A stretch of DNA of 62,789 nt, counting the filler, from Folioceros fuciformis (lineage: Eukaryota), in NCBI GenBank assembly GCA_049999805.1. It is 5 parts of 4 records of this genome, joined end to end, with 100 filler letters (N's around TTAATTAATTAA, not from the genome) between each part and the next. Parts side by side here need not be neighbours in the genome. Positions count along the whole stretch, not along the records: positions 1 to 28,555 come from JBNGIO010006246.1; 4 more parts are not named here. The stretch is one strand, 5' to 3'. Both the position numbers and the translations under genes were made by a program. Position 1 is the first letter of the stretch. Each line of letters starts with the position of its first letter. Under the pieces are notes generated by a model that did not search any database, had not been told where the DNA came from, and worked only from the letters and a program-made list of their open reading frames with translations. This document shows positions 4,605 through 50,813 of the stretch, piece after piece.

Positions 4605-7600
4605 CTACGGGAGGATAGATTTGTACGCAGAAAGATGGCCTTCGACTGCAGATGAGTCCCATGAAAAGTCGGCGGTCATGCCATTCCTTTGCAGAGTAGA
4701 CCAGGCCTCTGGATTTTGACTCTGCAAATGGAGATACTTGTCAGGAAATACCGTAGCAAAAGCGGATTAGCCCCGCACTACAGGCGCGGACATGGAATGC
4801 TGACCTGAAGATCCAAGGCACGGCGTAAAGCAGAGGAAACGTCTGGTCCTGTGATGGAGTAGAACGTGAATCCTGTCCTCTTGGACATGTCGTAGTTTGT
4901 GTCATTCACATCAACCACGCTGCCATGACACCCGTAGTTAGAATACCGACAGTGCTAGAAGCATCATCGACAAGTCCACAGACTGGAAGGTGGAGATGTG
5001 ACGCATGTTTGTCAGCTAAACTCGAAATGTTGCAGACCTGCCCTGCTGACCGGCAATTTTCCTTGCCACTGGAAGGGCTCCATACTTCATGGCAATCAGC
5101 TGCAAGTACGGTACGGGTGATGAGACGATGAGGACATCCATCATCAGCTAGCTCTCGAACATTTTTCTAGCAGATAGATGACGAAGGAAGAAGATACTGA
5201 CAGGTGACTGATCCGTTGGTTCCAGGACAGAAGCACAGACGAAAACGTCACTTGCAGCCATAACCAAGTGCACAAGAGCATCGTTGTACTTCAGCGCAAA
5301 CCCAGCGTTTAGAGTCTGAAACGCAGAAGCCGGAAGCTGTTAGCATTCTAGTAACTACCAGACCGGGTAACATTGAACACCTACAAGCATCATGGAGCAA
5401 ATCCCGCATCTTTACCTTGCAATCTCTCTGAAGATCCTCGAGCACTAGCTGTATTCGTGGACTCTTACTTGCACCGACGAATACGAACTGCAACCACAGA
5501 GTTCCTTCCATCTGAGAAATAATTGGCTACAATGACTAGCATCTGACCTCCCTAGGTCAGAAAGAGACAGACCTGAATACGTCTTTCTAACGCGCAGTCC
5601 AACGCTGCCTTAACCAATGCCAGCTCCAATTCCGACACCTGAGGCACTATGCAGCCCACCTGCATTTGCAAAGTTCAGCTTCACTCCGTCCAGAACCTCA
5701 ACATAGGGATGTGATAACACAGACACCTCGTGCTAAAGCCCTGACCAATGGTTCATCCATTTCTGATGCTGGAAGCGACAAGAACTGTCTCAAATCCTCC
5801 TTGCAACGAGCCTTCCCAGAAAGATCGTCGACTGAAAAGGTCCAAGGGAGCAGGCTGTCCTTGGCCGGGTTCCATACAGACTCATCCAAACCATTGAATA
5901 TTCCGACAACCTTGGTTCTGCCATCAGCCAGAGCCTCAGAATGAAGGTTCCAACTGAAACATCCCCAACGTATTTCCCAAGGGAAACAAACCAAGTATCA
6001 ACACTCACTTGTTTGAAATAAGGGTCGAATCAAGGCCATGACCAAACTCGCGAGTCATAGAGTCCCTCAAATAAATCGGAGAGACTGTGGTAACTTTGTT
6101 AGAGTACACAATACCTCCCTGGACCCACATGAGTACACAAGTTGATGAAAATGAAGTAACAGCACTTCACACAAACGTTGATTCATAGACAGTAGCAGTT
6201 CACCGCACCAAGGACTCACCTTCAAAATGTTCACATATCTGGACTCCAGGTTGTCTTGCAATCGATCAGATCGGTGCAATTGCAATGGATCGAGACCACA
6301 TAGAGAAAGTTTTTGAGGTTCTTGAAGGCACTACAGATCAAGTTTTCAAGATTTTGCATCAAATGTGTATAAGCCTTGTAAATCATGACCAGACTAGGCC
6401 ACCCACCGGGCGGCCTATCTCATTTGAACAAGCCAAAGGTGTACCTCAGCTCCCTGTCTATCTACACTGTGCGCACGAATTACCTGATACTTGAAATTGT
6501 GGCAGGTGAACACGATACGGGTATTTCCAAGACCCTGAAACAGACAATATGCATCGTCAGATATCATACAATACATTATTCTCATTCAATGACAGTAGAT
6601 CACTCAACCACATTTTCAACACCTGATTAGCGTAGATGTCCCAAAACAAAGGGGCAACTGGGGCAGTTTGCCAATTGTGTAGATGTAGTACGTTGGGCTG
6701 TTTTCCAGACTTCAGGAGGTACTCTAACGATGCTCGTGAGAAATAAGCAAACCTGCGAACCCATAAAAATCATGACGGTAAGCAGAACGTGTGGCCTACA
6801 AGTTGGCCTCTAGGAAGGTGTCGTACCTACTTCAGGACCAAACTGGTAATCCAGTTTAGAGGCAAGTTGCCTACCTCTCAAAGTCATCCTCGTAGTCATA
6901 AAGCTTAGGACGAGAGAACCACCCACTTGGATGCAAAGGTTCGATGAAAGTAACAGGAATGCCATACACAGTTCTGCAAAATGAACAAGAGGCGAAAGGG
7001 ACTTTGAACAAGAGGGCCCAGAAAACAGAGCGTGGCAGATCAAGACCGGAGCCCTTCATCACATCATCAAGTGAACCCGGCACCGAAGGACCGGTCCAAC
7101 ATGTGTGTAGCAAGCAAGGTTTTCCCACCAGCATCATACCCTATCCATAGCTTGTTCTTATGCCACCCGCCAGCAAAAAATGAGTACAGATCTGCTTTGA
7201 TCTCCTTCAGATTGTTGACCTGGCTCATATCCAGTGACTCGTATCTGCAACACATGACAATCCAGATAACATTTCAACTCAGCATTAAGGAACAAGAACA
7301 TTTTGGAAGCGCTAGTTCATAAAGACCTTAGAACTCTAGATTGATTAGAATCCCACGACGTACACTTACTTTGGCAAAAAGACCTCCACTAGATGACCTT
7401 TACGTTGCAGAGCACGACACAAGGAAGTTATGTAAGTTGCAAGGTTCCCAGACACCGCAACTGGATGCATTTCTGTACAAATGTGTACAATATGTAATTT
7501 CTGCCTGCACGAAAGCCAAATCATGAAAATAACAAAACATGTCCACCAACGTCGAAAGACACTGACAAGTCACAACGTTTGGCCCGCACTAATCCAGTCT

Positions 7601-11497: not shown

Positions 11498-12401
11498 ACC
11501 TATTTTCATCCGCGTTCCTCCTAAGACTTAGGGGCCATGGCAAGGACTTCTCAATATTCATCAAGTAGTGTGCCAAGATCAAAGCCAAAGAAATGGTGTT
11601 CTTCTTCTTCCTTTTCGGTGGCCTTCTTTCAACAATGCATACCCATTTTTGTTGAAAAGAGCATTGGCCAATGCGGTTTTAAGAACAACAACAAATGTAG
11701 GTTAAGCAACTTCTTCAGCATAAGGTAGGTAGATCTTTTGTTATTCCACATTAAGACATTTTGGGAGTAGTTGATAGTTTTTTAGAATAACGCTCAAAAG
11801 GGCTAGTACCGTTTTTACCTTTTGCCCGACTTGGATTGTTTCTCCAATCTCAGGAGTAGATGGGACTTTCATCTCTTTTTCAATAATAAAAAATAACCTT
11901 TATTCATATCTTTGTAAGTTCAAGTAACTTTTAATTATCTCTATAGCTACAACCTTATTTGCAAAGTTTTATTCCTTATTGTTATTTCATTTCCACTACC
12001 AAGGCAATGTTGGATCTTAAAAAATCTCATTTCAATGACAACGTCATAGATTTCCTTCACCTATGATTAAAAGTATATGTAAGGTTTCCATTTATTATTA
12101 AATAATGAAAATCTTTTGATGGTCATTTCAAACTTCCTTGTATTTTGTGTAGTAGTAATCAAGGAGGAAGGTTGCTTAGTTAAGAAACTAGATATATTAT
12201 CTAATGCACCTATTTCTTCCTAATTTTTTTCTTCTTTTCCCACAAGTGTAAATAAAGAGAAACTAAATATTAGAAATATAGTGGCCTTTTTCTTCGATTC
12301 CTTTGTGAATTTGCTTGCGTGTATAGGTTCAAATATAGAAACTATGAATTTTTTAAAAGAGTAAAAATTTGGACTATATCTTGATTTCAGTTCATACACA
12401 C

Positions 12402-12722
12402 TATGTTTTAAGATTCGTCCCGATTGACAGTGTTTTAAGATTCGTCCCGATTGACAATGTTTTAAGATTCGTCCCGATTGACAGTGTTTTAAGATTTGTC
12501 CCGATTGACACAGTGTTGTAGGATTTGTCCCGATTGACAGTGTTTTAAGATTCGTCCCGATTGACACTCTGTTTTAGGATTCGTCTTGATTGACAGTGTT
12601 TCAAGATTCGTCCCGATTGACACAGTGTTGTAGGATTCGCCCCGATTGACATGGCTGTAAGTGAGGGCTCCCGATTGACACAAGTGTTGTAGGATTCGTT
12701 CCGATTGATAGTGTTTTAAGAT
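12402..12722. repeat. ~28-30-bp tandem array (core GATTCGTCCCGATTGAC), left part; interrupted by the Gypsy insertion
   Basis: tgttttaagattcgtcccgattgaca repeated ~10 times head-to-tail; the array resumes at 22334. Confidence 0.85.
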
Positions 12723-12833
12723 TGTCGTGCTCCCAGCATCAACTGTTGTGAGCACTTCAGTTCAGTCCATCAGCTGCAAGGCTAATGTCTTGTGCACTAA
12801 GAAAAAGAGAACAAAAAGATTGTCCATGCCTTC
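12723..12833 (-). repeat. Terminal repeat segment B2 (111 bp), 3' end of element
   Basis: Near-identical (4 substitutions) to 13306-13416. Confidence 0.9.
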
Positions 12834-13303
12834 AAGATGTTAGGCTGCTCATATGCGCCATAGCTCACTCCGTGTCGTAAAGCTGCGAAAAGGGGACTGC
12901 CCTCGTCGGGCTGCCCAGAGTTGGTAAGTCACTAGCGGGATGCCACCATCTCCCTCACACCGTCAATCTGCACCAAATAGCTTGTCCTTTCATAGACGGC
13001 TAGTGAACAACAAAAAAAGGTTTAGGTCTTCCGGTGGTTCCTCTCATGAGCGACTTCGACAATTGCCTTTTTCCTCGCCGTGTTCGATTTCTTTGTTTGG
13101 TGCCCCTCCAAGCCGTTTCCCATGGGCTGTATGAGCCCACGTGCTTCTAGTGGGCAAGTAGCCATGGCTAGTATTTTAGCCATTTACGTAATTTAGGTTG
13201 AGTTAGTTTAGTCACCTATTATCTTATCAACTGAATTCCACTAAACTATCACGTTCACCATGACGCTCTACTATAAGTCCATTTTTGCCACAATTTCACG
13301 ACA
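12834..13303 (-). repeat. LTR segment A2 (470 bp)
   Basis: Same length as 21864-22333, with roughly a dozen substitutions. Confidence 0.9.
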
Positions 13304-13305
13304 GC

Positions 13306-13416
13306 TGTCATGCTCCCGGCATCAGCTATTGTGAGCACTTCAGTTCAGTCCATCAGCTGCAAGGCTAATGTCTTGTGCACTAAGAAAAAGAGAACAAAAA
13401 GATTGTCCATGCCTTC
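13306..13416 (-). repeat. Repeat segment B1 (111 bp), directly after the polypurine tract
   Basis: Copy of 12723-12833; separated from A2 by the dinucleotide GC (13304-13305). Confidence 0.9.
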
Positions 13417-13424
13417 CCCCCCCC
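13417..13424 (-). promoter_or_regulatory. Polypurine tract (G-run) of the Gypsy element
   Basis: C-run on the + strand (G8 in element sense) lies ~40 nt after the integrase/PHD stop and abuts segment B1. Confidence 0.75.
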
Positions 13425-13465
13425 AGCTGATGGATGGGCTGAAAGCATGAAGAGCACGACAAGAG

Positions 13466-14760
13466 CTACACTCCTGGGCTGGTCACACCTGCTGCGTCCG
13501 GTTGGCACTTGGGACAATACCAAAGTTGCTCTGGTACATGGGTAAGTGGTGGCTGTAAGAGGAAAAGGTGGAAACCCCCATTGCAGCCATCACAAAGTAA
13601 CATGAGGTCAGCATCATCTGTGCGTTGACAAACCTGACAAGGGTAGTCTGCTGGTGGAATCCAATCTGTTGTGACAATAGAAGGATCAAGATTGGGCAAG
13701 TGGCAAGGTGCGCAATTCTTGGTGTGGTCAGTGGTGATCCGACCATCTGAGCCTTGCAATACCAGGATGCCATTAGGCTTGACCTCCTGAATCCGTAACA
13801 CATGCCGACTACTAGAAGTGTCCAGGGTATCTGAGGTCTGCCTCTGGAGGTAAACAAAGTCTCCTACCTGGAACTTCCTGAGCTTGGGCCTAAAATTGCC
13901 TCCCCTAGTGTGTGCATAACGAAGGGTATCCCTATGCTGGGCAATGTGCAAGTTAGCCATTGCCATGGGCATGGCCTGTTTGAACAAGGCTGCCCTGTTC
14001 CCTATCACACGTGCCCATGTAGCTGCATCATCCAGCTTGACAACTTCTAGCATTTGTTTAGCTATAGAACTAAGTGGAATTGGTTCTCTGCCAAACAAGA
14101 GGAAGTAAGGGGAAAAATGGGCAAGGGCAGCATGCTTGCTCATGCGGTAGCCCATTGCAATATATGGAAGCATGAGATCCCAATCTGTTTTGGGTTGTCG
14201 GAGACACAGCTTGCGAAGCCCCTTCTTCATAGTCTGGACCATGTGCTCGGCTAAGCCATCAGCCTACGGGTGGTCCCGGCTAGTTCTCCTGTGGTCAATA
14301 AGGGCTGCATCCATTAGATCCTGGAATTCTCCTCGAAACTCAGAACCATGATCTGTGTGTGAGACACTCTGCGCAGCCACCAAACCTACTAAGCACACAT
14401 TGTAGGAAGGCTTGTGAGGTACTCCTAGAGGTCTTGTCTGGCAGGGCCACTACCTCCACCCACTTGCTGAAGTATTCCATCATGATCATCGCATACAGGT
14501 TGCCTCGTGGAGACTACGGGAGCTCACCCATCAGGTCACATGACCATCTGAAGAATAAACCCATGATGGGCAAAGGGTGCAACTCTAGGTGCTGCATGGT
14601 GAAGGAAGCCTTGACACGGTCGCATTGCTCGCAACAGGCTACTCGTTCCTTCACTTGTTCATCCATTCGATTCCAGTAGAAATAGGGAGTCAACAGGTTG
14701 TAGGTGCGTTTGACCCCAAAATGACCCATGTCATCATGCACCCTACTGATGAGGGCAGCA
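13466..14760 (-). pseudogene. Gypsy integrase (HHCC zinc finger, DDE core) with C-terminal PHD finger (13505-13639); stops and a frameshift
   Basis: HDDMGHFG...CCEQC; WSCDLMGELP, EYFSKWVEV, TDHGSEF, DGLAEHMVQTMKKGL, SPYFLLFGR; CQVCQRTDDADLMLLCDGCNGGFHLFLLQPPLTHVPEQLWYCPKC. Confidence 0.9.
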
Positions 14761-15079
14761 CGATCTGCTGGTGGGGGTACCAATCGCTCCACTCTTTGAG
14801 CCTGTTGATGGATGAGGTGTCTGTCCCGCCAACAATACTTGATAGCCCGTTGGTGAACTCGTTCCCTTGTGGCCGCAGTCCAAGTGGGGTCCTCTCTACC
14901 TGTCTGCACATACTGAAGGGTAGCTGGATCCTCCCAAATATCCTTGGAGGATTGCTGAGCTGCACCTAAAGGCACCTGTCCCAAGCAAGTCATGGCCACC
15001 AAAGCCGATACTGCAAGCATTGTGCTGTACTCTTCATCTTGGCGAGCTCCGTTAGTATCCACACAACTACTGTCAGGAT

Positions 15080-16480
15080 TTCGTGACAAGGTATCGGCAT
15101 TCTGGTGCTTCACTCCTGGCCGATGTTCAACCTGGAATTCGTAATCTTGAAGGATCATGGCCCAACGTGCGAGCTTGCCACTGAGCTTAGTGTTGGTCAT
15201 CAGCCACTTGAGTAGTTGATGGTCTGTCACTAGTGTGAACTTCTGACCATATAAATATGGTCTGAAGTGGCACACAGCCCACACAGCAGCGAGGCATTCA
15301 CCCTCGTAGCTGCTATAGTTGGCTTCATCTCAATTGTTGCTACGCGAGGCGTAAGCAACCACACGCTCACAACCTGCTTCATCTTGTTGAGCCAGCACAG
15401 CCCCTAGCCCTAGACTACTCCAATCTGTGTGAACTACAAAGGGCTTATTAAAATTGGGTCTAGCCAACATTGGTGCAACTGTCAACTCCAGCTTTAAGGT
15501 GTCAAAAGCTTGTTGTGCCTGCTCTGCCCATGTCCACTCTATATCCTTGCGCAGCAGATCATTAAGAGGCTTGGCAATCCTGCTGAAATTGGGTATGTAT
15601 ACTCGATAGTAATTGCATAACCCTAGAAATGAACGCAGGGCTGATACGGTGGTCGGTTCCTTAACCTGCATAATTGCCTGAACCTTGGCAGCATGTGGGG
15701 TGACACCATTGGGGACACTTCTGTGACCCAAATACGCCACAATGCTCATGCCAAACTCACACTTGGCTGGGTGGCACGTGAGTTGTGCCTTCCGTAATCT
15801 TACAAACATGGTCTTCCAGGTGTACCAAATGATCCTCGAAGTCCATGCTGTGGACTAGCACATCATCAATGTAGCACATGAGATAGCCGGCTCCAGCTAG
15901 TACTATGTCCATGATGCACTGAAAGGTCACTAGCGCATTCTTGAATCCAAAGGGCATCACTAGCCATTCCCATAGCTGTTGAGAACCATGGAAGGCTGTC
16001 TTCTTGATATCTTCAGCTGCCACTGGGACCTGGTTAAACCCTTGTCGTAGGTCCAGCGTGGAGAAGAACATAGACTGTCCAAGATGGTCAAAGATCTCCT
16101 CTGGTGTCGGCATTGGGTACCGATCCTGGGCAGTTACTGCATTGACAGGCCTATAGTCGCCACACATCCTCTTCTCAGTCCACAAACCTTGGCTGTCCTT
16201 TTTGGGTGGCATCACAATGGCTTCAGTGTAGTCACTATTAGAGGTACGTATTAGGTTTGCCTCATACAGTTCCTTGCATCTTGCATCCACCATGTCCCAT
16301 TCCGTCTTGCTCAACCTATACCGTTGCCTGTATACAGGCTCTTGGGTGGTAAAGTTGATGCGAAAGGTTGTGACATTGCACCTCTTGAGCTCATGCATGG
16401 AAAAGGCAAAACAGTCCCTGTACCTAAGCAGCAAGTTACGAATGCGGTCCTGTTGCTTCAGACTGAAATCTGAGCCCATC
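15080..16480 (-). pseudogene. Gypsy reverse transcriptase and RNase H; frameshift near 15810, stop at 15330
   Basis: RMCGDYRPVN, YPMP, LDLRQGFNQV, MPFGFKNA, YIDDVLVHS, KCEFG...YLGH, LRSFLGLCNYYR, HTDWSSLGLGAVL, TDHQLLKWL. Confidence 0.92.
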
Positions 16481-16739
16481 TTCCACGGGAAATTAACAGT
16501 AGACAGCTTGGGTGTAGCTCCTGGATCCTCCTTTTCTAGCCTTGGCTTGATCAGATGCTGAGTAAACAGTACGTGATGCCAATGCTGCGTACTCCACCCC
16601 CGCAGCATCTAGCCAGAAAGGCAGTTGTGTGTATCCTGGGAATGGGAGGTGAACAGCATCTCCAAGGCAGATGCTAGCAAACAAGCCTGGGAGTAGCATG
16701 GGAGTGATATGAGTGTGCAGCTGAAAGGCAAGGCACAAA

Positions 16740-17685
16740 CTCACCAACCATGTGATGGCATGGAGGTCCATGGCTCGTCCTAGAGTGCCCTTGCGCTGCC
16801 GATTGGTGACAGTAGGGGCCGCTGTACTATGGGTTTGAAAACCCATGAGTCACTCTCGCTCCTCAACTGTTGGTTCTTCCCACCGTTGCGTTTCAGTATT
16901 CAATAATAAGCCAGCTCCTTCACCTCTGTAAGCAAATGAACCCGGAAAGCTGACCAGCGTGGGCAACGTCTGCCTTGGCTGACCTGGAATGTTGGTCTTG
17001 AACCAAGGGGCTTTCTCACTGGCCACCACAGGTCGTGGCCTATGGTAGTTCTCCAATACAGTACAAAGTTGCAGCCCTGGATCCCTGCTAGTGTTCCAGA
17101 GAGCCAAGTCCAACACGGAGACAGGGACCAAATTGGTCCAGTAGTTACAAAGCCTGTGGGCATAGCTACCCACCTGCACAGCATCCATGAGGAATGGTGG
17201 CCCTGCAAAATGTCGCACAATGGCCATATCCTGCTGCACCTATGGCCGGGTATCAAATTGGGCTGGTGTGTTCTCGAGCAGGTATGCACATTGAGGGTTA
17301 CTATCTTGTGCCCATGCCAAGATTTGTTGGAGATCTCTAAACAAACCAGAACGTGGATCTATCAACCCTGCACCTACCCCAGCTTGAGAGAATCCTTGGC
17401 ATTCCCAGCCAGCTATGACCATGTCGAAGGGGCCCAAGGCTTGGATGTGGCCCTGCTGTATATACTGGACGTCCTGAGGTAAGGACGTGAATGTATTAGC
17501 AAGAGCCTCAACTGACAGTTGCTGTGGGAAACGATGTTGTAGACCCTGCAGCCGAAATGCAGCAATTTGCCTGGCAACGGGGTCTTTGTCACAGTAAAGG
17601 TACCTTTGAATGCTCAAACCTGTCAAGAGCAAAGCTTCTAACCCGGTACAAATACCACCAAATAGTTCAACAACTGTAAGGGCTA
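16740..17685 (-). pseudogene. DNMT3-like C5 cytosine DNA methyltransferase domain inside the Gypsy polyprotein (two in-frame stops)
   Basis: Motif I VVELFGGICTGLEAL, motif IV HIQALGPFDMVIAGWECQGFS, motif VI YLLENT, motif VIII region PFLMDAVQVGSYAHRLCNYWTNL, motifs IX-X EERE*LMGFQTHST...RKGTLGRAMDL. All in the same frame as gag and protease. Confidence 0.9.
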
Positions 17686-18049
17686 GCGCAGCCGGTGCCC
17701 ATATGATGACAGTATTGTCCACATAAGATGTGGGACAAGATGATAGAGTCCCGGCTTCCAACAATTGTTGCACCTTGCTGACCTGCTCTTGTGCCTTGGT
17801 CAGCAATGCCTCTGCCTGCTCTGGACAGTCAGGCTGAACTAGAGCTTGCTGCAAACTAGTACACCTCACTTGAGCCTCTGCAACATTGGTCTCTAGATGC
17901 TTGTCCACTTGGTATGTGTCTTGGACAAGCTCCACCACATTGCTACTTTTGATACCAACTACAGCTGGGCTTTTCACCAAAGTGGCTACATCAACCTCCA
18001 CCCAGCCATGCAAATCTAATGGCAGATGTGCAATGCGACGACCTCCTTG

Positions 18050-18420
18050 CTTCCAGTCAGGCCTATAGAAGGCTTGCTCAGTCCAGTTATCCACACCAAC
18101 TCCTGGTGGAAAGAGGAACTCTTGCCCCAACAGCAAATCATAGTTGGTGGCTGTGGTTACCACGTAGGGCAAGGACAATGTCATGGCATCTGGCGTGCCC
18201 GAGTTCAAGGTGATGTCCAGGGGTTGGACTGTCTCACCACAGACTGGTTCAACAGCCCCGGATGCCGTCCTGATGTTCCAGGGCGAGGTATGCAGTGCAT
18301 CACCCTGAAGATGCAACCTTGCAGCTAGAATCTTCCCAAGGAGTACTGGTTGGGCTCCCGTGTCTAGCAACACCACTCTGGGTGCATACCCATTGATTGT
18401 GACGTGCCCACAACGATTGT
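18050..18420 (-). pseudogene. Retroviral-type aspartic protease of the Gypsy element
   Basis: VTING...VLLDTGAQPVLL active-site motif and downstream YDLLLGQEFL. Confidence 0.85.
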
Positions 18421-18640
18421 CAACAACTGCATTGCTGACACGAGCCTGTAGTCGATTGGTGGACTGCACTCGCGGTTGGCTGTCAACTCTCTCAGCTAGT
18501 TGTACAGTGTAAGAGCCATTGCAGTGACTCGGTGCAGTCTGCCCACCTGTAGAGTGTGACATCGCTGTTGGCAGCACCCATTGTGAAGTGTATGCTTTAC
18601 CCAGGCTAGGGTCAGCAGATGCAGCCGTGGCTTCTGCAGT

Positions 18641-20725
18641 TTAAAGAACTTCCTTCAGCCTGCTGGTCGTGATGCCCATGTCCTGCAGTGTGAAAACTGG
18701 CACCTGAGTTAGCTTGGCAGCCAGTTGTGTGATTGTGGTGGTTTGAGGTAAGAGATACACATGCTTTGGTGTTGGTATGCTATGGCCAGGTGTTCTACTC
18801 GTGGGCAGTTGTTCCACACGCAGCGTTGAGTGCTCCTGGCCTCGTTCCGGAATTGCAGACCCCGGTGGCAGTGGGGCAAAGGACTTTGGCATGGTAGCCC
18901 TGGCCCCTCGATTCTTGGTGAGAGGCCCTAAGGCAGTTGTTGTTGTTCCCATGACCACCTGTAAATTCTGCCCCACCCATGTGGCTGGCAACTCCACCTC
19001 CATGCTGCTCTCACCAATTCTGTCAACCATACATACTTGGTGTGCTGGGCCATAATCCTCATCCTCTTGTCCTGGTACCAACTTCACCGCATTGGCTGGT
19101 TTGGAAGAGCCAGTGATGCTGGATAGGTTGGCTGTCAAGACTCCAAGTTGAGCTGTCATGACAGCCATGGAAGCCTCAAGGGAGCTGACCTTGTCAGCAG
19201 TGGCGGCTGCCTTAACCTTGGCCTTGTCACGCTGCTGTTTACTGCGGGACAACCCAACAGCGCTCCTCATTCCTCCTGCTTCCACACTGGCAATTGTGGC
19301 TCCTGCAGACCCTACGGTACCAATCTTCTGGTATCTTCGTTCGGGGTGCTTTTGGAAGCACACAGTAACCACGTGTCCATTCTTCTGGCAATGGGTGCAG
19401 TAGAGTCCCTCCGGAGGACACTTGCATGCAGGGGACATGTGCTCAGGGCTGCCACAATGGTTACACATGGCTACCACTGCTGCCGCTGGAGTTGCTGCTG
19501 AAGCTACCTTAACTGGCTTAGTCTGACCAGCCTTGGCTCCTACACCTGTGTTAGCTGCCCCCTTGCTAGAGAACATGGACTGGTAGTGCGTGAAGGCCTT
19601 GGAATGCCGAGAGGCATAGGCCGAAAAGGCTACCTACTTCTTCTCAACTTCTTCATGCACTTGCTCCAAAGTATACTTGTCCCCATATTTGTCCACCAAG
19701 GATGTAACCAGCTGGAAATGAAACAACGGGTCTCCTTCAAGTGCAGTCAAAAACCTTTGCGCTGCTTCCTGATTTGTTAACATCCTTGTACCTTCCCTCA
19801 ATTTCTGTAGCCTCCTGAAGCACATCTAGACTGTCTCCCCCTTTTTGCGAGCAAAGGCAGCAAGTTCTGCAAATTTCCCTGGGGTCTTCAGTGGGAATGC
19901 CCTCTCCAAAATAGCTAGGAACTCCTCCACTGGGTTCAGGTACTTGCAGGTGTGTAGAAACTCTTGCACACCAGCTGTGGCAGTAGCCCGCTCTGCTAAT
20001 GTCAAATTCACCACCGTTGGAGGTGGTGTGGTGGCGGAGATGGTCTTGGCTACAATCTCCACCTGATGGTCGTTAATGGCTGCTGCCAGTTTGGCATTAT
20101 ATGCCAACTGTAGAGCCGAGTGATGGGCTGGGTTAGGAGTGGCAATTGTGCCCAACAGCTTAGCCTGGTGAGCCTCGTACAAATCCAATGCCTCATCTGC
20201 TAAGTAGCTGGACAACTGTTCAAACATGTACTGGTGGTTGTAGGCAGCACCATGTTTGAACTTCACCCTGCTGATGACTGCATTGATGAACAAGCGAAAG
20301 TCCCTTAAGGATTGGGTGCTTGGTCTGCCTGAGAAATTCTCAGGCCTAAGCCTTGATGAACCACCCTCCATGGTGTCTGACCCTTTAGACAGGTCACCCT
20401 GGCCTTGCCCTACACCAAGGACAGACCCAGCAAACCCCAGATGTGTTTGCTGTGACCTCACAAATGACTGTTGTGAATAGAGAGACCCTTGTTGTTCAGG
20501 TTCCTCGTGACAAACTAGCTGACCCCCTAAATTTGAGCTAGTTGGCACAACAATCTTGCCCAAGTCTAAGAGGGGTGACCAGCTGGGTTGCCCAACAAAT
20601 GTTGCTGGTTCCAAGTCCTCTCTCAAGTCTTCTTCACTTGCAAGTTGGCGTCGTCGAGCTACCCATCTTCTCCTCCGCTGTGCACACTCCGGTGATGCCC
20701 TAATAGGAGTGTCTCGACTCCTCAA
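18641..20725 (-). pseudogene. Gypsy gag with two CCHC zinc knuckles; in-frame stops at 19826, 19634 and 18641
   Basis: RPENFSG...YLADEALDLYE capsid-like segment; CNHCGSPEHMSPAC and CTHCQKNGHVVTVC. ORF pieces starting at 20725, 19825, 19576 and 18577 share one frame. Confidence 0.8.
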
Positions 20726-21842
20726 TCGGTAACGTAGGCTCGCCTCTTGCTAATTTGGTTGCATACCCCATGCACCCCTGTTACACCTACAGCTGGTGCT
20801 TGGCAAAAACAGTGAGGTGCTGTGTTGCAAATAACAGCACCGGGCCTGGGGAAGTGACTCTCGCTGGGACGCCACACACTGCTTCAGCCGTACCCACAAT
20901 ACCTTCAGGCTTCTACTGGCTGTTGCTGGCCCCCAAATCAAACCCCTGTTCTCAAAGGCAAAATGAGCCCCTAAACATGTGGTTCCAACAAACCACGCGT
21001 GCCTCTCGACAAATGTCACCAAGAAATGAGGGTTAGCTCCTCCCAAATATCTGATGGTGGCCTCCCTTCGTGCCGCGTTTGGTCGCAACTTATAGCTGCC
21101 CCCCACAGTCTGAATGAGTGTGAGCAAAGCTCAGCTACTCCCTATCCAGATAATCCTAGTTTGGGAAAATCCTACCCCTGGAAAATCTCAATTTCCTAGG
21201 CTTGCTGGGCAGATGTAGCTGTGAAAGAAAGCAAAGAAACACAACTTTCTTGGAGTCATGAGGGGACAAGAAATCTACCCCTCCCCAAAGCATCCATGAT
21301 CAACCATGTCCCTCTTTCTGCAGTGATCAAAATGTTCGCCTCTTCAAGACAAATCTGTTGGTATATAGATTCTAAGGCAGACAAGCGGAATTGCGGCCGT
21401 TGTGTCCTCCTTAAGTTTGGCGTCCACACCCTCAAACCCCAAACCCGAGGCTTAAGTGCGTGAAATGCTGAGCGACTTGCTGGGGCTGCCTCGATGTGGT
21501 CTCTTAGCGGTGCCTTAGCTGCCAGCTCTCCTAAGCCCTGTCTATAGAGCCTTGGATCAACATGTAGTTGCTGCGAGTAGAAAGGTAGTTGCTACAACAC
21601 TGAGCATGCACATTCCAGACTCACGGCTGCTACAAAGGAAGAGAGGGATTCTCCAAGGCTGCTGCCTGAATGCACATGTCTGGCGCGCCCCTAGAGTCCC
21701 TACAAACCCTAAATCCCTAGCAATGCAAAGGGAAAATGACAGACTTCACACAAACGGGTCTGGATGGGTGCTCCACAAATGCTGCCTTGCTGTAGCTGCT
21801 TGGCTGCGCTCTAAGAGGTCCTCGCCCGTGCCCTCATTGCCT

Positions 21843-21863
21843 GAAAAAGGCAGTTGTCGAAGT
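21843..21863 (-). promoter_or_regulatory. Putative self-priming primer-binding site
   Basis: Directly abuts the inner end of the 5' repeat; exact 21-nt reverse complement of 22083-22103; lacks the TGG start of a tRNA PBS. Confidence 0.7.
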
Positions 21864-22333
21864 AAGATGTTAGGCTGCTCACATGCGTCATAGCTCACTC
21901 CGTGTCGTAAAGCTGCGAAAAGGGGACTGCCCTCGTCGGGCTGCCCAGAGTTGGTAAGTCACTAGCGGGATGCCACCATCTTCCTTACACCCTCAATCTG
22001 CACCAAATAGCTCTTCCTTTCATAGACGGCTAGTGAACAACAAAAAAAGGTTTAGGTCTTCCGGTGGTTCCTCTCATGAGCGACTTCGACAACTGCCTTT
22101 TTCCTCGCCGTGTTCGGTTTCTTTGTTTGGTGCCCCTCCAAGCCGTTTCCCATGGGCTGTATGAGCCCACGTGCTTCTAGTGGGCAAGTAGCCATGGCTA
22201 GTATTTTAGCTATTTACGTAATTTAGGTTGAGTTAGTTTAATCACCTATTATCTAATCAACTGAATTCCACTAAACTATCACGTTCACCATGACGCTCTA
22301 CTTTAAGTCCATTTTTGCCACAATTTCACGACA
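21864..22333 (-). repeat. LTR segment A1 (470 bp), 5' end of element
   Basis: Direct repeat of 12834-13303; begins TGTCGTG in element sense. Confidence 0.9.
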
Positions 22334-22465
22334 AGATTCGTCCGGATTGACACGATTGTGAGAGAGGGCTCTCGATTGACACGGCCGTGAGTGAGGGCTC
22401 CCGATTGACACCACTATGAGGGAGGGGTCCTTATTGCCACCGCCATGAGGGCTCCCAATCGACAC
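22334..22465. repeat. Right-hand continuation of the CCCGATTGAC tandem array
   Basis: agattcgtccggattgacac, ctctcgattgacac, ctcccgattgacac: same core as 12402-12722. Confidence 0.75.
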
Positions 22466-22672
22466 TGCGGTTTGGGCAGGTTCTGCATTGGAGAGGCAAA
22501 AACTCAGACGGTTAGGGGTGTGCATGGAGGCGACATATGTGTGCACAACAGACAGCACTGTAAATGCTGAGGGCCGAAGGAAGGATGCTGAACCCACAAG
22601 CCCTAACTCTAACTAAAAAAAGTGAATGAGTGTGAGTGGAGAGAGACGGACCCGAACGTGAGGGATAAAATA

Positions 22673-22718
22673 AGGGCACAAAGTAGATGTCCCTATCGGG
22701 ACACCTACTTTGTGCCCT
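22673..22718. repeat. Inverted repeat / hairpin (21-bp arms, 1 mismatch, 4-nt loop)
   Basis: agggcacaaagtagatgtccc-tatc-gggacacctactttgtgccct. Confidence 0.8.
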
Positions 22719-28555: not shown

Positions 28556-28655
28556 NNNNNNNNNNNNNNNNNNNNNNNNNNNNNNNNNNNNNNNNNNNNT
28601 TAATTAATTAANNNNNNNNNNNNNNNNNNNNNNNNNNNNNNNNNNNNNNNNNNNN
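28556..28655. other. Artificial contig linker (44N-TTAATTAATTAA-44N)
   Basis: Six-frame-stop spacer, identical at four places in the window. Confidence 0.97.
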
Positions 28656-31600
28656 GGACAGGACGGAAGAGGAAGAAGCCCGAGGCGGAGGATGTTTCCG
28701 GGAGCAGCTTGTTTGAGATTGTGAAGACCAACGGGGAAGCAGTGCAAGAGGCCGCTCGGGAGTGGCTGGTTCGGTACGAGACGGACAGGGATGCTGCTGT
28801 CACCGAGCTGCTCACGATGTTGTTTCAGGCATGCGGATCTAGGTTTGTGATGGAGGATGCTGGGACGGATGTGGATGAGGCTGTGGAGACCATGGTTGCG
28901 CAGGCTAAGATGGGCAATTTGGATGATAGCATCGGATCCAAGAAGGGGGATGTGCGGAATTTTAAGAGCAATCTTGAGGCCTTCTGGGAGGCCCTTGTCC
29001 TTGAGTGCCAGGAAGTGGCTCTTTTCGACCAGTATTTGATGGACAAGGTTATGGATTTCGTTATCGCTATTTCCTGCACTCCGCCCAGGAATTTTCGGCA
29101 TGTGGCAACGCTGGTCGGGCTGCAGCTGGTGAGTGCTTTTGTGACTCTGGCTAACACGCTCTGTCGAGCCCGTGAGACGAAACAGCGGCAGCTGAATGCG
29201 GAGAGGAAGAGGAATAAGGGGGGTCCTTTGTTGGCTGAGGCGCTCGCCAAATCTCTGTCCGAGACTCACGAGAGGATCACGCAGGTGGAGGAGATGATGC
29301 GGAAGATATTCACGGGGCTTTTTATGCATCGGTATCGAGACAAGGATGAAAACATACGGGTGGCTTGTGTCTCGTCTATCGGTTCTTGGATTGCATCCTA
29401 CCCGTCCTTGTTTCTGCAGGAGCTGTATCTGAAGTATCTAGGGTTCCCGCTGAATGACAAGAGGCCCAATGTCCGGAATAGTGCGATTCTGGCTCTGCAG
29501 GCGCTGTATACGGTGGATGCCTACGTTCCTTCTTTGGCCCTCTTCAGTACGCGCTTCTGCAGTCGGATGGTTGAATTGGCCGATGACATCGAAGTTAGTG
29601 TGGCAGTGAATGCGATTGGCTTGTTGAAGCTGTTATTCAAGCACCAACTTGTTCCGGACGAATACTTAGACTCCCTTTTTGACCTGTTGATCGATGACCA
29701 GGCACAGATCCGGCATGCTGTGGGGGACTTGGTCTATGAGCACCTGGTTATTCAGAACCCCAGCTCTGACCCAAAGGCACTTGAGGAGCCTGTGGAAGCC
29801 GAGCTGGATCGAATACTGCAGATACTTGGGGAGTTCTCAGCTGATCCTATTCTTTCGGACTATGTGATCGATGCGTTCTGGGATAAGAGCAAGGCGATGA
29901 AGGACTGGAAGTGTCTACTGTCTATGTTGTTGGATGAGAAGCCAAGGATTGAGCTGGCAGATGGGGACGCCACAAACCTCATCAGAGTGCTTTTGGCGTC
30001 AGCTAAAAAGTCTGTGGGAGAAAAGATCGTTCCTTCAGTGGAGGTGCGGACAACTGATCATCGGAAGTCGGCAATGAACAAGGCTCAGAAGGAGGCCTTG
30101 GAGGCTGCCAAGGCTGAGATGACTTCTGCTTTGATGAAGGCCTTCCCGAAGCTGCTTAGGAAGTTTCTTGTGGACCGAGGCAAGGTGGCGGCCATAGCGG
30201 AGGTTCTGTTGTACATGGATCTTCAGTTGTTCTCATTGAAGCGCAAGGAGCAGGAGTATACATCTGCGTTGCACTTGTTGAAGGATGCTTTCCTGAAACA
30301 TGGAGATGAGGAAACGCTTAGAGCTTGCATCAAGGCTCTGTCCTTCGCGCTCACCGATAGCCACGCTGACTTGCTGGATACTGCCCAGGTGGTCGTTAGC
30401 GAGACCGTGGATGACCTCACGGTGAAGCTGAGGCATGCCATCAGTCACGCAGGAGAAACAGAGGATGAGTATTCCCTGATAGCAAATTTGAGAAGGATGC
30501 ATCATATGCTGTTGGCAGTGCCTGTGACCAACGAGAGTCTGTTCACAGAAATGCTGGGGTTGATCAAGGACTTCAACTACTTGGATGACGAGGTTATCAG
30601 GCTGGTGTTATTGAACATGTTTCTGCAAGTTGCTTGGTTACTGAAGTCCGTTGATGTCGACCGTCCTGACGAGTCGACTATCGAGGCCTTGATAGTCAGG
30701 AGGAGTAGCTTGCTGGAACAGCTGCGCTGTTTTGGTGACAGCGTGTACGACAGTTGGGAAAATGGAAGTCCCAGGAGCCCTCTGAGCAGCACCATATGCG
30801 TCATCCTGTCCGACGTGTGGAGCTTATTTTCTGCGGAGAAGCTGGCGCCTACTAGACTGCATAAACTGGGAATCTCTCCTGATGATGATTTGCTGCGCCA
30901 CTTTTGGAATCTCTGTGAGCACAAGCTTTTTGCCAATGATGACGCTGAGGAAGCAGCTGAAGAGCACAGCGAGTACTTGGACGAGAAGGTAGTGGTTATG
31001 TCTGCAGCAGCTAAGCTGGTGGCTAACAGGTTGATTCCCACGGACTTTCTGGGCCCGGAAATTGTGTCCCATCTGGTGCTGCATGACAATATTGTGTCCG
31101 AGACGGTGAGGCAGTTGGTGGTGTCCCTGAGGGAACAGGAGACTCCCGAGAACGTATCTCACCTTTACCTGGAAGCAATGAAGAGAGCTCACCGGCGGTT
31201 TCTGGACGATTCTGACGACAGCTGGTCCACCAAGGATTCATACAACACCTGCAAGGAACTGGCACTCCGGTTGAGCGCGACTCTCAAACGGACGGCCAAG
31301 GCCACCATCCTCAAGATTGTCAAGGGAGGCATCAAGCACGCGTTTGTGGAATCTCCCAAGCAGCTCACGTTCCTGGAGGTCGGAGTGCTACAATTTGCAG
31401 CCAAGCTCACGTCTGCGGACCTGCGCCCCATCTACGACCTGATGGTCTCGAGGATGCAAGGCATCAACACCGACGAAGACCCCAGCGCCTGGCGCCCATG
31501 TCTCGTCTTCCTGCAGTACCTGAAGGAGAAGTGCTCCATCAGCGACGTCTCCGCCGACAAGGGCAGCGGGAAGCGAGGCAGGCGCAGGGCGGCAGCCATC

Positions 31601-32269
31601 AAAGGAAAGAAACTCTTCGATGGCCAGGACACGTCTGAGGAAGACAATGCCGATCCCATCTCCAGCGCCTCCGGGGAGGCCGACGAGGAAGAGGAGGAGG
31701 AGGACGAGGAGCGCGTCGTGCTGGCCAACTTGAAGACCGCCCGCACTGCTCGCCAACGCGCAGTGAAGGCCAAAACGAGCAACAAGGCAGCCGCAACTGC
31801 AACCGCGGCTACGTCTACTACCCCATCCACGAGCGAAGCCGACCACCAGCAGAGATCCGACAATCCTGTATCCCACACAAGAAATGACTTCGCCAATACT
31901 GCAACAGAGGAACAGCTTCCTCGAGGCTCCGCCGCTGCATATCAAGAACAGGACCAGACTGTTAGCCTCCAGGAGGAGCCGTCCTCGAATGGCGACCAAT
32001 CGGTCGACGCCCTCTCTCCTGTTTCATCAGGGCACGCTCATCAGCGACCCGGCACGTGGACTGAAGAGCGGCTCCCTGGTAGGTATGCCCGGAGGCGAAC
32101 CCGGAGCCGCGAAGACGACGACGGAGCATCCCCTGCTGATGATGTTTCTGGTGGACAAGAAACGTCCCTCTTGAAACAAACCTCCTCTACGGAAGAAGCT
32201 GATCGTGGGAAGAGCATATCTTCTGGGAAAGAAGGGTCTCCTCCTGCCAGCATGTCCGCTGGAGACTAG
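28656..32269 (+). CDS. SCC3: Cohesin subunit SCC3 / stromalin (STAG), intronless, 5'-partial
   Basis: Single ORF of >1180 codons with STAG/SCD motifs: LFDQYLMD, PRNFRHVATLVGLQL, FMHRYRD...IR..C...IGSWI..YP..FL...YLKYLG..LNDK, RMVELADD; acidic tail. Confidence 0.95.
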
Positions 32270-32431: not shown

Positions 32432-34168
32432 TCATTGCCAGTAGCATGAGGAAGGGCCTTCAGGGGCGGACCTGGCGAGCGCATTGGAGACCGGGGCAGC
32501 AGCGACCCCTCGTTGAATAAGCAGGCAGCGGAAGAAATGCAGGCGGGGCAAAGCAGCGTCCACACCCGCATCGTCGATGGCATGGCGCGGACTCCACAAT
32601 CTCTCTGCCGCGGCGGCGGCTCGGGGCCAGATAGTTTGCTGCAGATCAGAGGAGTCCACCGTCTCGCCCCACATGCAGACCTCGCCGCCGAGGAGAAGGT
32701 CGGAATCTGACTCCGAAATGTCCAGGGCGGGCTCATTAAGGTAGAAGGCCTGCCATGGCACGTCCAGATGGTCCAGGTACCAGACATCTTGGTTACTCAC
32801 GATGCAGCGGAGCCCGGCCTCGAGCACCCGCGGAGCCAGTCCTCTGGCCCACCAGTTGTGCACGACGGACCGCGGGTGCAGTACCTTAGGGAAGTTGTCG
32901 AACGGCTCCTCCCAGTTCACAGGGTCCCAGCCGAGGGAGGCAGCGATCTCCTGAGCGCGCACCACAAAATGCGCGTACGCCTCCTGCCCTGACATTCCAT
33001 GCCCCCGGAGCCAGGCCCTGACGTGCGGCACCCGCTCCCAACACCGTGTATCCACCTCGTCCCCTCCCAGGTGGAAGAGCTCGAAGGGGAAGAGCTCCCG
33101 GAGATCCGCCAGGATAGCGGCTATGGTGTTGAACGTGCTGTCCTTGCTCACGTCCAGCGGCTCTCGGCAGTTCTCCGAAGGCCAGAGTTCCGGATACCCT
33201 AAACCCCAAGACTGAGCGTGTCCGGGCACATCGAGCTCCGGCATGACGTGGATCCCCCGCGCGGCCGCATATGCCACTACGTCCGTCACGTCCCGCACAG
33301 TATACCTCTCCCGCGGTGTATAGGACCCCCGCCACAGCTCCTTCCGGGAGGGGACCTCTAAGGGGAACGCCTGCTCGTCCACTAGGTGCCAATGTAGGAC
33401 GTTGAGCTTGGAGAAGGCCATCGCGTCCAGCACCTCCTTGATGGCCGGAACTGGCAGGAAATGCCTACCGGTATCGATAAGCAGGCCACGGAATCTGAAC
33501 CGCGGCCAGTCCCGGATCTCCCAGGGAGCCTGCTCGATTTCCACCGCCTTGCTTCTGAAGTTGAAGACGCAGAGCTGGCTCAGGGTTTCCATCCCCCGCA
33601 CCGCACCGTAGACAGTCTCCGCCTCCAAACTGGCCGTCCCATCCCCATCCTCCCCCGGCAACGATAGCCTGTACTCCTCACTCGTATTGAGCCGCAGTCG
33701 CTCGTCCCCCGACCACACCTTCACCACCAGCCTCCGTAGCAAGGGTTTCCCGTCCCAGTGCTCGCTCTCCTCCACATCTCCCGTGTGCTGGAAGATGATG
33801 CCGCGGTACCTCTTCCACGCGTTCTTCACCACATCCGACTCCCCTCCCTGGCCTTCCGCCACCAGCTCCAGGCCGGGATCCACTGTCAGCACGGACTCTC
33901 CCCGCGATACCTCCGCGGGCAACGGCCAGATCTTAACGTCGTAAGATCCGCTGAAGCTGATGCCATCGCTGCGCCGGTCCCCGCCGACTGCCTCGCTTGA
34001 GCCCGGGCCCGAGCCCAGGCGCAAGCGCAGGTGCAGAGCCGGCCAACTCCAGCAATGCCCGCCGGTGGCCTGGGCCAGCAGGAACAGCAGGAACAGCGGC
34101 AGCCTCAACGACTGCCGGGGAGCCCGCCCCGCCATGTTGCACCCTTCGGGAGAGGTCCGTGTGCTCAT
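32432..34168 (-). CDS. HEXO: Beta-hexosaminidase (GH20, HEXO1/HEXO3 type), intronless; start may be the ATG at 34135
   Basis: Signal peptide; PRFRFRGLLIDTGRHF, KLNVLHWH, PELDVPGHA, catalytic FHLGGDEV, GGEVCMWGE, IWPRAAAAAERLWS. Confidence 0.95.
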   Translation of the reverse strand: MSTRTSPEGCNMAGRAPRQSLRLPLFLLFLLAQATGGHCWSWPALHLRLRLGSGPGSSEAVGGDRRSDGISFSGSYDVKIWPLPAEVSRGESVLTVDPGLELVAEGQGGESDVVKNAWKRYRGIIFQHTGDVEESEHWDGKPLLRRLVVKVWSGDERLRLNTSEEYRLSLPGEDGDGTASLEAETVYGAVRGMETLSQLCVFNFRSKAVEIEQAPWEIRDWPRFRFRGLLIDTGRHFLPVPAIKEVLDAMAFSKLNVLHWHLVDEQAFPLEVPSRKELWRGSYTPRERYTVRDVTDVVAYAAARGIHVMPELDVPGHAQSWGLGYPELWPSENCREPLDVSKDSTFNTIAAILADLRELFPFELFHLGGDEVDTRCWERVPHVRAWLRGHGMSGQEAYAHFVVRAQEIAASLGWDPVNWEEPFDNFPKVLHPRSVVHNWWARGLAPRVLEAGLRCIVSNQDVWYLDHLDVPWQAFYLNEPALDISESDSDLLLGGEVCMWGETVDSSDLQQTIWPRAAAAAERLWSPRHAIDDAGVDAALPRLHFFRCLLIQRGVAAAPVSNALARSAPEGPSSCYWQ

Positions 34169-34569
34169 CCGATCTCCTCATATCCGAGCTTTACAGAGAG
34201 GTGGCAGTAGTACACAGACCTAATCCCAGCTTTTGATTGAGTGTCTGTTTCCACGGGAGAAGCATATGAGTCAAATGAAAACAGACTACTTCTGACTGCC
34301 GGCAACGGGCGAGAACCGGCGGTGGTGTAACAGTTCCGCGGACAACCCCGGGCCCCACAGTGTGAAATGGAAACAGGTCGGCCATGGTTCGCAGACACCC
34401 CGGATAACATGTATATACTTGCTGCCTGGAATCGTCATGGCTTGCCTTCGTATATATCCATGGCCGCGGCAAGCACGATGCAGGAGCGCCGCGAGCAACC
34501 GGAGCAGGAGGACTTCCAGTTGCTCCAGGAGCACAAGCCGATTGTAGCCGCTTTGCCTTCTCCATTGCC

Positions 34570-40000: not shown

Positions 40001-40708
40001 CTCTTCCTATCATCCTCTCAAGGTACGGTGCAGGGTTTCAGTGCGTAGAAATACTTTTGGTGTGCTATTCTCTGGGAAGCCCTTTTCCAATGGTGTTCTT
40101 GTCCCACAGGCATGGCCAGGTCAAGCACAAGGAAGAAATGTGGTATCCAATAGGGGTAATCGGCAGGGCATTTTTGTGGTGGAGTCATCTCGCAAATTCC
40201 GGGATGAAGCAGGAGACAAGTTCTGGATTCAATTTCAGATCGTTGATGAGTACCGGCCGTCATCTAAAACGCAGGGGCCATACAAGGTTAAGGTGAGGAT
40301 GATAAAGTGTTTCGGGGGAAGGATTCGTCCTTCTTTCGGCATTTCTAGTATAATGAATCTTTTCCTCACCGTCATCGGCAGATCACGCTGTTCGTTCCTG
40401 GAAACTATCAAGGTAACCGAAGTACAGTCGTGGAGGAAACGTATAAGGAGCGTGGAGTACACAAGATAGGGTTGCCATGTCTACCTCTGAGGACCGGAGC
40501 TACAGTTCTCGTGGAGATGACAGACAGAAATGGGCTGTACTTCTACGACGAGTTTTCCCTCACATTCCACATGCGGTATTATCGGCTCCTGAAATGGCTA
40601 GTAATTCTTCCACTAATGGGAATGGCTGCCGTACTCATCCTTGTTAGACCCCAAGATGCGGTTGAGTCCTTGCCAACTTTCGCCGGCGACAAGAAGTACT
40701 CGTTTTGA
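37052..40708 (+). CDS. DEX1: DEFECTIVE IN EXINE FORMATION 1 (FG-GAP/integrin-alpha-like repeat membrane protein), multi-exon
   Basis: Signal peptide; [57 protein letters not shown], repeated D.D.DG..E motifs; C-terminal [16 protein letters not shown] plus a TM helix. Confidence 0.92.
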
Positions 40709-50637: not shown

Positions 50638-50813
50638 TGTTAGTGAGTATAGAGTTAGGTATACTCATAGTCTTATTTAAATACATTTTCAGACATTAGG
50701 GTTAGTAGTAGAGACGGTTATTTATAATAACCGTCACCAGGAGTCACATTCACGTGACGCCGCTGTAAACGCGTCATGCAATACAAGCTTGCTAAGCGCA
50801 TCCATCGTTGAGA
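50638..50813 (+). repeat. Short Copia LTR (~175 bp) flanked by PPT and tRNA-Met PBS
   Basis: Preceded by gtgggag, starts TGTTAG, followed by TGGTATCAGAGC at 50814-50825. Confidence 0.85.

Follow-up and report, generated by a model that had tools for sequence, protein, structure and literature searches.

Self-primed reverse transcription has been described for the retrotransposon Tf1 and proposed for Tj1, in which a 5′ segment of the RNA, encoded by the long terminal repeat (LTR), is complementary to a site just past the LTR (PMC4600332, PMC5006619). It has also been predicted, in the survey of Neumann 2019 (PMC6317226), for 83% of 1500 Tcn1 and 89% of 203 TAR elements, and Tcn1 is given there with both a 5-bp target duplication and a chromodomain in 100% of cases. 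Here we describe a Ty3/gypsy retrotransposon of 9611 bp that lies on the minus strand, from 22333 to 12723, in a stretch of DNA of 62,789 nt from Folioceros fuciformis (assembly GCA_049999805.1; parts of several records joined end to end, hereafter 'the window'), where it is present as a decayed copy. Two of its 21-mers, at 22103–22083 and 21863–21843, are most likely the self-primer (P) and the primer-binding site (PBS) of a self-primed element of the Ty3/gypsy type.

The element also recalls a second described system. KnitGypsy-Dnmt3 from Klebsormidium nitens, presented under the name 'streptophyte Gypsy-DNMT3', is a Gypsy element of the LTR kind whose Pol contains a Dnmt3-type methylase, and the legend of Fig. 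4c of that paper calls its repeats DIRS-like and its domains typical of Gypsy (de Mendoza et al. 2018, PMC5890265); it is named again in a 2026 bioRxiv preprint. The terms 'primer binding' and 'PHD' do not occur in the available text of PMC5890265, and the text-format supplementary files of Neumann 2019 hold no entry for Klebsormidium. The window's element carries a C5 methylase inside a Gypsy-type Pol and in this sense fits the description of Gypsy-DNMT3. It shares with KnitGypsy-Dnmt3 this placing of the methylase and the DIRS-like repeats, which recur in the related loci L027, L039, L049 and L059. The likeness is one of description, the closest protein to the window's protease-methylase open reading frame (ORF) being an unnamed one of 43% identity with the same order of Gag, protease and methylase. 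No publication linking methylase-carrying gypsy elements with self-priming was found in literature searches that covered the main text of preprints.

Like Tf1/Tf2, Tj1 and the Tf1/sushi elements, the window's element has no tRNA-type PBS, and a segment of its 5′ repeat can pair with the bases that come immediately after that repeat. The primer duplex of Tf1 is reportedly 11 nt long, unlike the duplex of 21 bp in the window and those of 12–16 and 21–24 bp in its relatives. The element further differs from Tf1/sushi in having a PHD finger and not a chromodomain, a C5 methylase in Pol, a 4-bp target duplication and split direct repeats. It resembles Tcn1 (found in mosses and club mosses) and TAR in being a plant-lineage LTR retrotransposon for which self-priming is predicted from sequence alone. 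Conventional LTRs are taken here as a further feature of the Tcn1 clade, whereas the window's element has neither these nor a chromodomain nor a 5-bp duplication; TAR, in turn, belongs to copia and has its domains in another order.

A 21-bp duplex with the bases directly behind the 5′ repeat

In element sense, the retrotransposon is composed of A1, the PBS, the coding region, a polypurine tract (GGGGGGGGGAAGG), B1, the dinucleotide GC, A2 and B2 (Table 1). Block A (470 nt) occurs twice with 97.2% identity, and block B (111 nt) stands on either side of A2, its two copies being 96.4% identical. The repeats are split direct repeats, A1...B1-A2-B2, unlike plain LTRs. An earlier sequence-only reading of the window had named A1 and A2 as 5′ and 3′ LTRs; the repetition itself was confirmed, but with block B flanking the 3′ copy these are not simple LTRs. 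Neither the split arrangement nor the DNA methylase had been part of that reading.

On the plus strand, 21843–21863 (GAAAAAGGCAGTTGTCGAAGT) is the exact reverse complement of 22083–22103 over 21 nt (100%), with 219 nt between the arms, so that P sits 219 nt before the end of A1. The sequence-only reading had proposed this complement as a self-priming signal, and it was found again both by direct reading and by an inverted-repeat search. When the window was searched for the 21-mer with up to three mismatches, only three sites were recovered (0/100 shuffles matched), namely the two arms and, with the single mismatch that had been noted before, 13053–13073 in the 3′ copy. The likeness of A1 and A2 stops exactly at 21864/12834, where A1 reads ...CATCTT/ACTTCG and A2 reads ...CATCTT/GAAGGC, and the complementary segment therefore begins at the first base past the repeat, at the inner edge of the 5′ copy as previously claimed. 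For an anchored 21-nt word in a 470-nt repeat the chance expectation is 3.2e-10, and none of 5000 mononucleotide shuffles reached an anchored complement of 21 nt, the longest being 13.

The same boundary is visible at the other end of the element. At the A2-B2 junction (...CATCTT/GAAGG...), the end of A2 meets the tail of the polypurine tract, which is the start of B. Here the base that immediately precedes the PBS meets the bases that come next to the polypurine tract, so that the junction marks both predicted starts of DNA synthesis; it also marks the repeat end defined by reverse transcriptase (RT) a second time, in coincidence with the edge of the duplex. The geometry that had been put forward for priming was borne out as well, since the T at 22083, the 3′ end of P in element sense, has as its partner the A at 21863, which opens the sequence behind the repeat. 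A TGG-type tRNA site is absent, as had been stated: no TGG occurs within 88 nt past A1, and the first one lies 89 nt downstream. Rfam gave no match in 21700–22400, and no tRNA genes were found in the window. In the predicted RNA 22103–21800 the 21-bp stem is part of both the minimum-energy and the centroid fold.

From the anchored complementarity and the lack of a tRNA-type site, both read directly here, together with the pairing in two groups of relatives and the TATA spacing in the first of them (below), we infer the 5′ end of the RNA, the RNase H cut and the priming itself. The element RNA would carry P in its 5′ part, and P would fold back on the PBS behind the 5′ repeat. RNase H would then cut at the end of the duplex and free a 3′-OH (on the T at 22083), which RT would extend across the last 219 nt of the repeat to yield minus-strand strong-stop DNA. 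This DNA would be transferred to the same sequence in A2, and the plus strand would start at the G-rich polypurine tract ahead of block B.

Pairing in relatives and competing readings of the duplex

The protease-methylase ORF has few long relatives; besides the unnamed protein, they include proteins from Marchantia and Closterium. Scanning metagenome contigs with an alignment of three relative proteins yielded 285 relatives, from which 80 loci of 27–51% identity were kept. No tRNA gene was found in the 38 of these 80 loci that were scanned for them. A repeat pair around the protein match was present in 7/80 loci. The pair of L076 was rejected as a segmental duplication and not LTRs, its repeats holding a host-gene-like ORF, and in L002 the 3′ repeat copy is cut by the contig end. 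L027, L039, L049, L059 and L063 represent three distinct insertions, the flanks of L049 being those of L027 and the flanks of L063 those of L059.

In a first group of relatives (group 1; 36–51% protein identity by best segment), 23 distinct 5′ copies have a 12–16-nt pair directly after A1. Here A1 ends in ...CAAT, the bases directly behind it are TCTAGAAAAACT(A), and (T)AGTTTTTCTAGA, their complement, is located within A with about 115 nt remaining to the end of that block. The anchored length was 12–13 nt in three of the four A1/A2 pairs (three distinct insertions), with 2e-5 to 5e-5 expected occurrences; the fourth pair tested, that of L049, has a G-to-A change in P. After seven near-duplicates from other assemblies had been dropped, 23 of the 30 5′-type copies were aligned, and 89.3% of the cells were paired, versus 35–57% when the partner was slid by 1–3 columns. 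The 15-bp duplex is flawless in 10/23 copies, and L043 and L023 show a compensatory change, with G:C where the other 21 copies have A:U. TATAAAA stands upstream of P in all 23 copies, at 32 nt in 20, 31 nt in two and 33 nt in one, and transcription is thus expected to start at the first bases of P.

A second group (group 2), consisting of L011=L014 and L002 with 29–30% identity, has (TTC)AAAAAACATAGTTCTTTGAGT inside A opposite ACTCAAAGAATTATGTTTTTT(GGG) about 160 nt downstream, giving 21–24 bp including G.U wobble pairs, and TATAAAG about 22–30 nt upstream of the start of the duplex. The P and PBS sequences of the window, group 1 and group 2 are three unrelated versions, in each of which a repeat-internal segment is complementary to downstream sequence, and in the window and group 1 the pairing site stands directly after A1. 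No TGG-type site was found in any of the three versions, and the CCA end of a tRNA is absent from all three forms of P. A loss of complementarity among copies had been named by the sequence-only reading as evidence against self-priming; what was found instead is that relatives at 27–51% identity keep the pairing with unrelated sequences. Three families that each pair with sequences of their own, the lack of a tRNA-type site and the group-1 promoter at the segment are together the signature of self-primed reverse transcription.

Other candidate pairs in the relative loci were rejected. L069/L077 contain an inverted repeat of 26–39 nt with a spacer of about 300 nt (5639–6007), some 300 nt ahead of the A1 block, which starts at 6318; it is probably a miniature inverted-repeat transposable element (MITE), and with no repeat pair in the locus it was not accepted as a primer pair. 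The pairs in L008, L018, L020, L040 and L072 are made of GTTGCAGC-like tandem motifs, and that of L065 is a hairpin with a 42-nt loop.

The window's own family is multicopy in public reads, with 88 contig pieces from run X1 and 73 from run X2, and both arms are contained in independent public runs. The commonest read variant has T, T, A and T at 22109, 22115, 22144 and 22149 (plus strand). Inside the arms, the differences among the variants listed are 21845 A>C, 21851 C>T and 22095 G>A. Position 21851 pairs with 22095, and a contig from run X3 (record 17) carries both changes, so that C:G in the window stands against T:A there, which amounts to one compensatory change. Covariation within the groups, the check suggested by the sequence-only reading, is weak: compensatory changes exist at 21851/22095 and in L043/L023, and the group-1 score as a whole does not exceed that of the shuffles.

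Several observations weigh against self-priming. The 304-nt fold as a whole is unexceptional (z = −1.87; 4/100 shuffles fold equally well). In the window's family a TATA box is missing at about −30 relative to 22103, and the closest TATA-like motif (TAAATAG) stands about 110 nt upstream; P may therefore be internal to the RNA. In the reads of the window's family, T at 21851 accounts for 208.7 of 228.6 depth in X1, and its partner, A at 22095, for 262.8 of 692.4 in X1 and 228.1 of 308.2 in X2, contig depths that give no copy-by-copy linkage of the two positions; the deficit at 22095 therefore implies many repeat copies that lack the matching base or derive from other elements. The common variant 21845 A>C comes without a partner change at 22101 among the variants listed. 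None of the public runs listed is on record as RNA, and X3, presumed to be an RNA run, gave one contig of 9251 nt that circles the whole element and is uninformative on 5′ ends. In group 1, 13/23 copies have 1–4 mismatches, mostly transitions, the covariation score was reached by 113/500 shuffles, and a double change was seen in only 1/16 pairs, both arms being simply conserved. In group 2, the contig stops within the only 3′ copy, so that the end of the repeat was not located, and L075, a decayed copy of this group, has lost 12 nt of P.

Some of these points can be specified further. The mismatch caused by 21845 A>C lies 3 nt from the far end of the duplex, and 18 perfect pairs remain beside the repeat edge. 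The commonest read variant likewise has no TATA ahead of P, the stretch still being an A/C-rich run. Transcription of the window's family may start upstream of P, in departure from the Tf1 picture, and such a start would not, in our model, prevent priming after the RNase H cut.

The competing reading that fares best takes the duplex for a long-range RNA structure in the 5′ leader, with a role in packaging, dimerisation or translation control, and leaves priming to another RNA. The stem is indeed stable and part of the minimum-energy fold, the arms of group 1 are conserved without significant covariation, and P need not form the start of the RNA, the window's family having no TATA at −30. We nevertheless consider a pure leader structure improbable: the duplex ends at the last base of the repeat, where synthesis must begin, and the A2-B2 junction marks this boundary independently. 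A different primer would need to pair with these very bases and would hence share the sequence of P, and all three sequence versions are without a TGG site.

Less probable still, and in our view quite unlikely, is that the PBS serves a host tRNA, a half-tRNA or another small host RNA and that the matching segment of the repeat is incidental. Half-tRNA sites without TGG do exist, in Ty1/copia lineages according to the part of Neumann 2019 that deals with them (PMC6317226). A tRNA-primed element needs no copy of its primer in its own repeat, however, and such copies are found in the window (21/21) and in two groups of relatives; moreover, P has a run of five A and no CCA end, and neither the tRNA gene search of the window nor the Rfam search of the repeat region gave a candidate. 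Finally, chance, a small DNA transposon with terminal inverted repeats or an assembly artefact can be practically dismissed as the origin of the inverted repeat: relative loci do contain long inverted repeats that have nothing to do with the element, as in L069/L077, but chance predicts next to no occurrences of an anchored complement of this length, the right arm and the 219-nt interval recur in A2 with B2 in place of the left arm, so that the two arms are not one inserted unit, both arms are present in independent public runs, and the feature is kept in relatives.

Coding content, split direct repeats and the integrase ends

Matches to Gag, protease, C5 DNA methylase, RT, RNase H, integrase and a PHD finger were found in the window's element. 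A single ORF (18640–17240, minus strand) holds the aspartic protease and the C5 cytosine DNA methylase (PF00145 in Pfam) and lies upstream of RT, RNase H and integrase, an arrangement that is the same in L039; translations show two Gag-type zinc knuckles upstream of it. The methylase domain is placed between protease and RT (16493–18640, minus strand). According to Pfam, RVT_1 is at 16608–15757 and RNase H at 15854–14514 (minus strand), followed by the integrase zinc domain (Integrase_H2C2) and, behind the integrase, by the PHD finger region (14263–13466, minus strand). Several in-frame stops and frameshifts interrupt the frames, and the copy in the window is therefore dead. Among the domain matches of the window's element and L039 there is no chromodomain, and the PHD finger stands in its place. 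The domain scans gave no match to the tyrosine recombinase family, the integrase matches being Integrase_H2C2 in the window and Integrase_H2C2 with rve in L039. Elsewhere in the window, at 47519–47950 (minus strand), there is a remnant of an rve integrase with a weak, DNA-level similarity (73.7% over 137 nt) to 14360–14493 of the element.

L039 itself encodes the methylase, RT, RNase H, integrase (zinc domain and rve) and PHD finger. Among the matches listed for its RT (the best 120 of 1840) are a protein of the liverwort Calypogeia fissa with 86% identity, one of Klebsormidium nitens with 55% and one of Marchantia with 53% that also bears a methylase domain; no reference labelled Tf1, sushi or Tcn1 is among these 120. 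Liverworts and streptophyte algae provide the nearest named proteins of the relatives, among the matches listed. Two domain orders were observed, protease-methylase-RT in the window, P0001 and L039, and RT-RNase H-methylase-integrase-PHD in P0003, P0006 and P0008.

Table 1. Features of the retrotransposon in the window (positions along the whole stretch).
Feature	Position	Strand	Description	Basis
A1	21864–22333	minus	5′ copy of the 470-nt repeat; begins TGTCGTG	97.2% vs 12834–13303
P	22083–22103	minus	Proposed self-primer inside A1; GAAAAAGGCAGTTGTCGAAGT in element sense	Exact complement of 21843–21863
PBS (predicted)	21843–21863	minus	Starts where A1 stops; element-sense sequence ACTTCGACAACTGCCTTTTTC	Complementarity and fold
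Internal region	13425–21842	minus	Gag zinc knuckles to PHD finger	Pfam and translations
Polypurine tract	13412–13424	minus	GGGGGGGGGAAGG; its final 5 nt are the initial 5 nt of block B	Sequence read
B1	13306–13416	minus	Internal 111-nt block; ends CATGACA (CACGACA in B2 and in the read consensus)	96.4% vs 12723–12833
B1-GC-A2 junction	13297–13312	minus	Near-palindrome CATGACA GC TGTCGTG	Both termini head to tail, 2-nt spacer
A2	12834–13303	minus	3′ copy of the 470-nt repeat; its copy of P (13053–13073) has one mismatch to the PBS	
B2	12723–12833	minus	Terminal block B, directly joined to the last base of A2; ends CACGACA	
Target-site duplication, 5′ side	22334–22337	minus	ATCT in element sense	
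Target-site duplication, 3′ side	12719–12722	minus	ATCT, behind the end of B2	

The layout of the split direct repeats and the names of their blocks are those of PAT-like and Ngaro elements of the order DIRS, in which the blocks follow each other as A1-B1-A2-B2 and the internal B1-A2 junction represents the joined termini (PMC4157794, PMC7192593). Unlike PAT and Ngaro with their tyrosine recombinase, the window's lineage has a DDE-type integrase, TG...CA termini and 4-bp target duplications. Troyka elements were set aside as unrelated, being animal elements with CG...CG termini and 3-bp duplications according to the description in PMC12440569.

The element begins with TGTCGTG (start of A) and ends with CACGACA (end of B), ATCT is duplicated at both sides, and the two flanks combined restore one unit of a satellite of 27–29 nt (12398–12722 and 22334–22470), from which we conclude that the 9611-bp element entered a satellite array by an insertion of the integrase type. 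The units of this satellite share the core TGTCAATCGGGACGAATCTTAAAACAC; those beside the 5′ end of the element are of a diverged subtype, which occurs once more at 12643–12681. About 340 nt outside the 5′ end there is also a hairpin (22673–22718) whose 21-nt arms are 95% complementary and enclose a loop of 4 nt. In the read contigs, the loose ends behind 22333 mostly continue as GC, TGTCGTG and B, and the B-GC-A junction of the common variant is therefore the perfect palindrome CACGACA-GC-TGTCGTG; the remaining loose ends run into unrelated sequence, as expected of the flanks of A1 starts.

The same structure was found in L027, L039, L049, L059 and L063, which have a G-run, a B1 of about 160–176 nt ending in CACGACA, a 2-nt spacer, an A2 starting with TGTCATG or TATCATG, and B2. 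The relatives' B1-A2 junction reads CACGACA, a spacer (AC, GC or GT) and TGTCATG. A G-run stands directly before B1 in 10/12 A2-type copies (about eight distinct), CGGG intervening in L054/L055, and B begins behind the end of A2 in 12/12. Most A2-type copies have lost 0, 2 or 6 nt at the A2-B2 junction, with a larger loss in L076/L078. The target duplications of the relatives are ACCT, GGTC and AAAC; including the window, 4/4 independent insertions have a duplication of 4 bp.

The polypurine tract and the PBS delimit the repeat B-GC-A, whereas the integrated element opens with A and closes with B. The repeat made by RT (B-2nt-A) would accordingly be shifted in register against the ends on which the DDE integrase acts, which form a palindrome in the middle of that repeat. 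This shift is a more unusual feature than self-priming. It is quite possible, if somewhat short of probable, that the family must pass through a circular DNA intermediate, self-priming being one part of the cycle. In such a model the linear product would be closed into a tandem-repeat (two-LTR) circle, the end of A being joined to the start of B. The circle would then be opened at the palindrome CACGACA-GC-TGTCGTG beside the PBS, giving the integrated form A1...B1-GC-A2-B2, and with cuts staggered about the 2-nt spacer, one behind each CA, recessed CA-3′OH ends would arise directly. The small losses at the A2-B2 junction of some relatives resemble end-joining. Alternatively, reverse transcription alone may make the same integrated product.

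Surroundings of the element and implications for the family

The remainder of the window contains host-like genes and Ty1/copia sequence. Long uninterrupted host-like frames at 28604–32269 (plus), 32432–34177 (minus), 2–667 (plus) and 39810–40469 (plus) were observed, and the host-like products are a cohesin SCC3/STAG protein (1221 aa, no stop), a GH20 beta-hexosaminidase (581 aa), a ULTRAPETALA-type SAND domain and a DEX1 beta-sandwich; these genes point to a plant-lineage host. Two copies of a 1996-nt sequence (49611–51606 and 53981–55976), 100% identical and 4370 nt apart, lie within Ty1/copia coding sequence, where a copia-type gag is found at 51613–52263 and RVT_2 at 52223–54364. The second copy overlaps the RT ORF, which speaks for a very recent duplication in tandem or for an artefact of the assembly and not for a pair of LTRs. 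More pieces of copia RT are present at 56317–58218 and 60146–62789.

Returning to the methylase-carrying element, its probable self-priming would be a variant of the mechanism known from Tf1/sushi, Tcn1 and TAR. Self-priming has, to our knowledge, been proven experimentally for fission-yeast elements only. For annotation, the locus suggests a simple rule, namely to look inside A1 for the complement of the first bases that follow it, as annotation tools miss such elements because these have neither a tRNA PBS nor plain LTRs. The self-primer and the polypurine tract would fix the start of RT on each strand. With the starts so fixed, the mismatch between the RT-made repeat and the integrase ends is exposed, and the idea that two-LTR circles are substrates of integration becomes testable in a natural system. 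If self-priming in a methylase-carrying gypsy element is true, the mechanism would be either older and wider than the Tf1/sushi clade or of an independent second origin.

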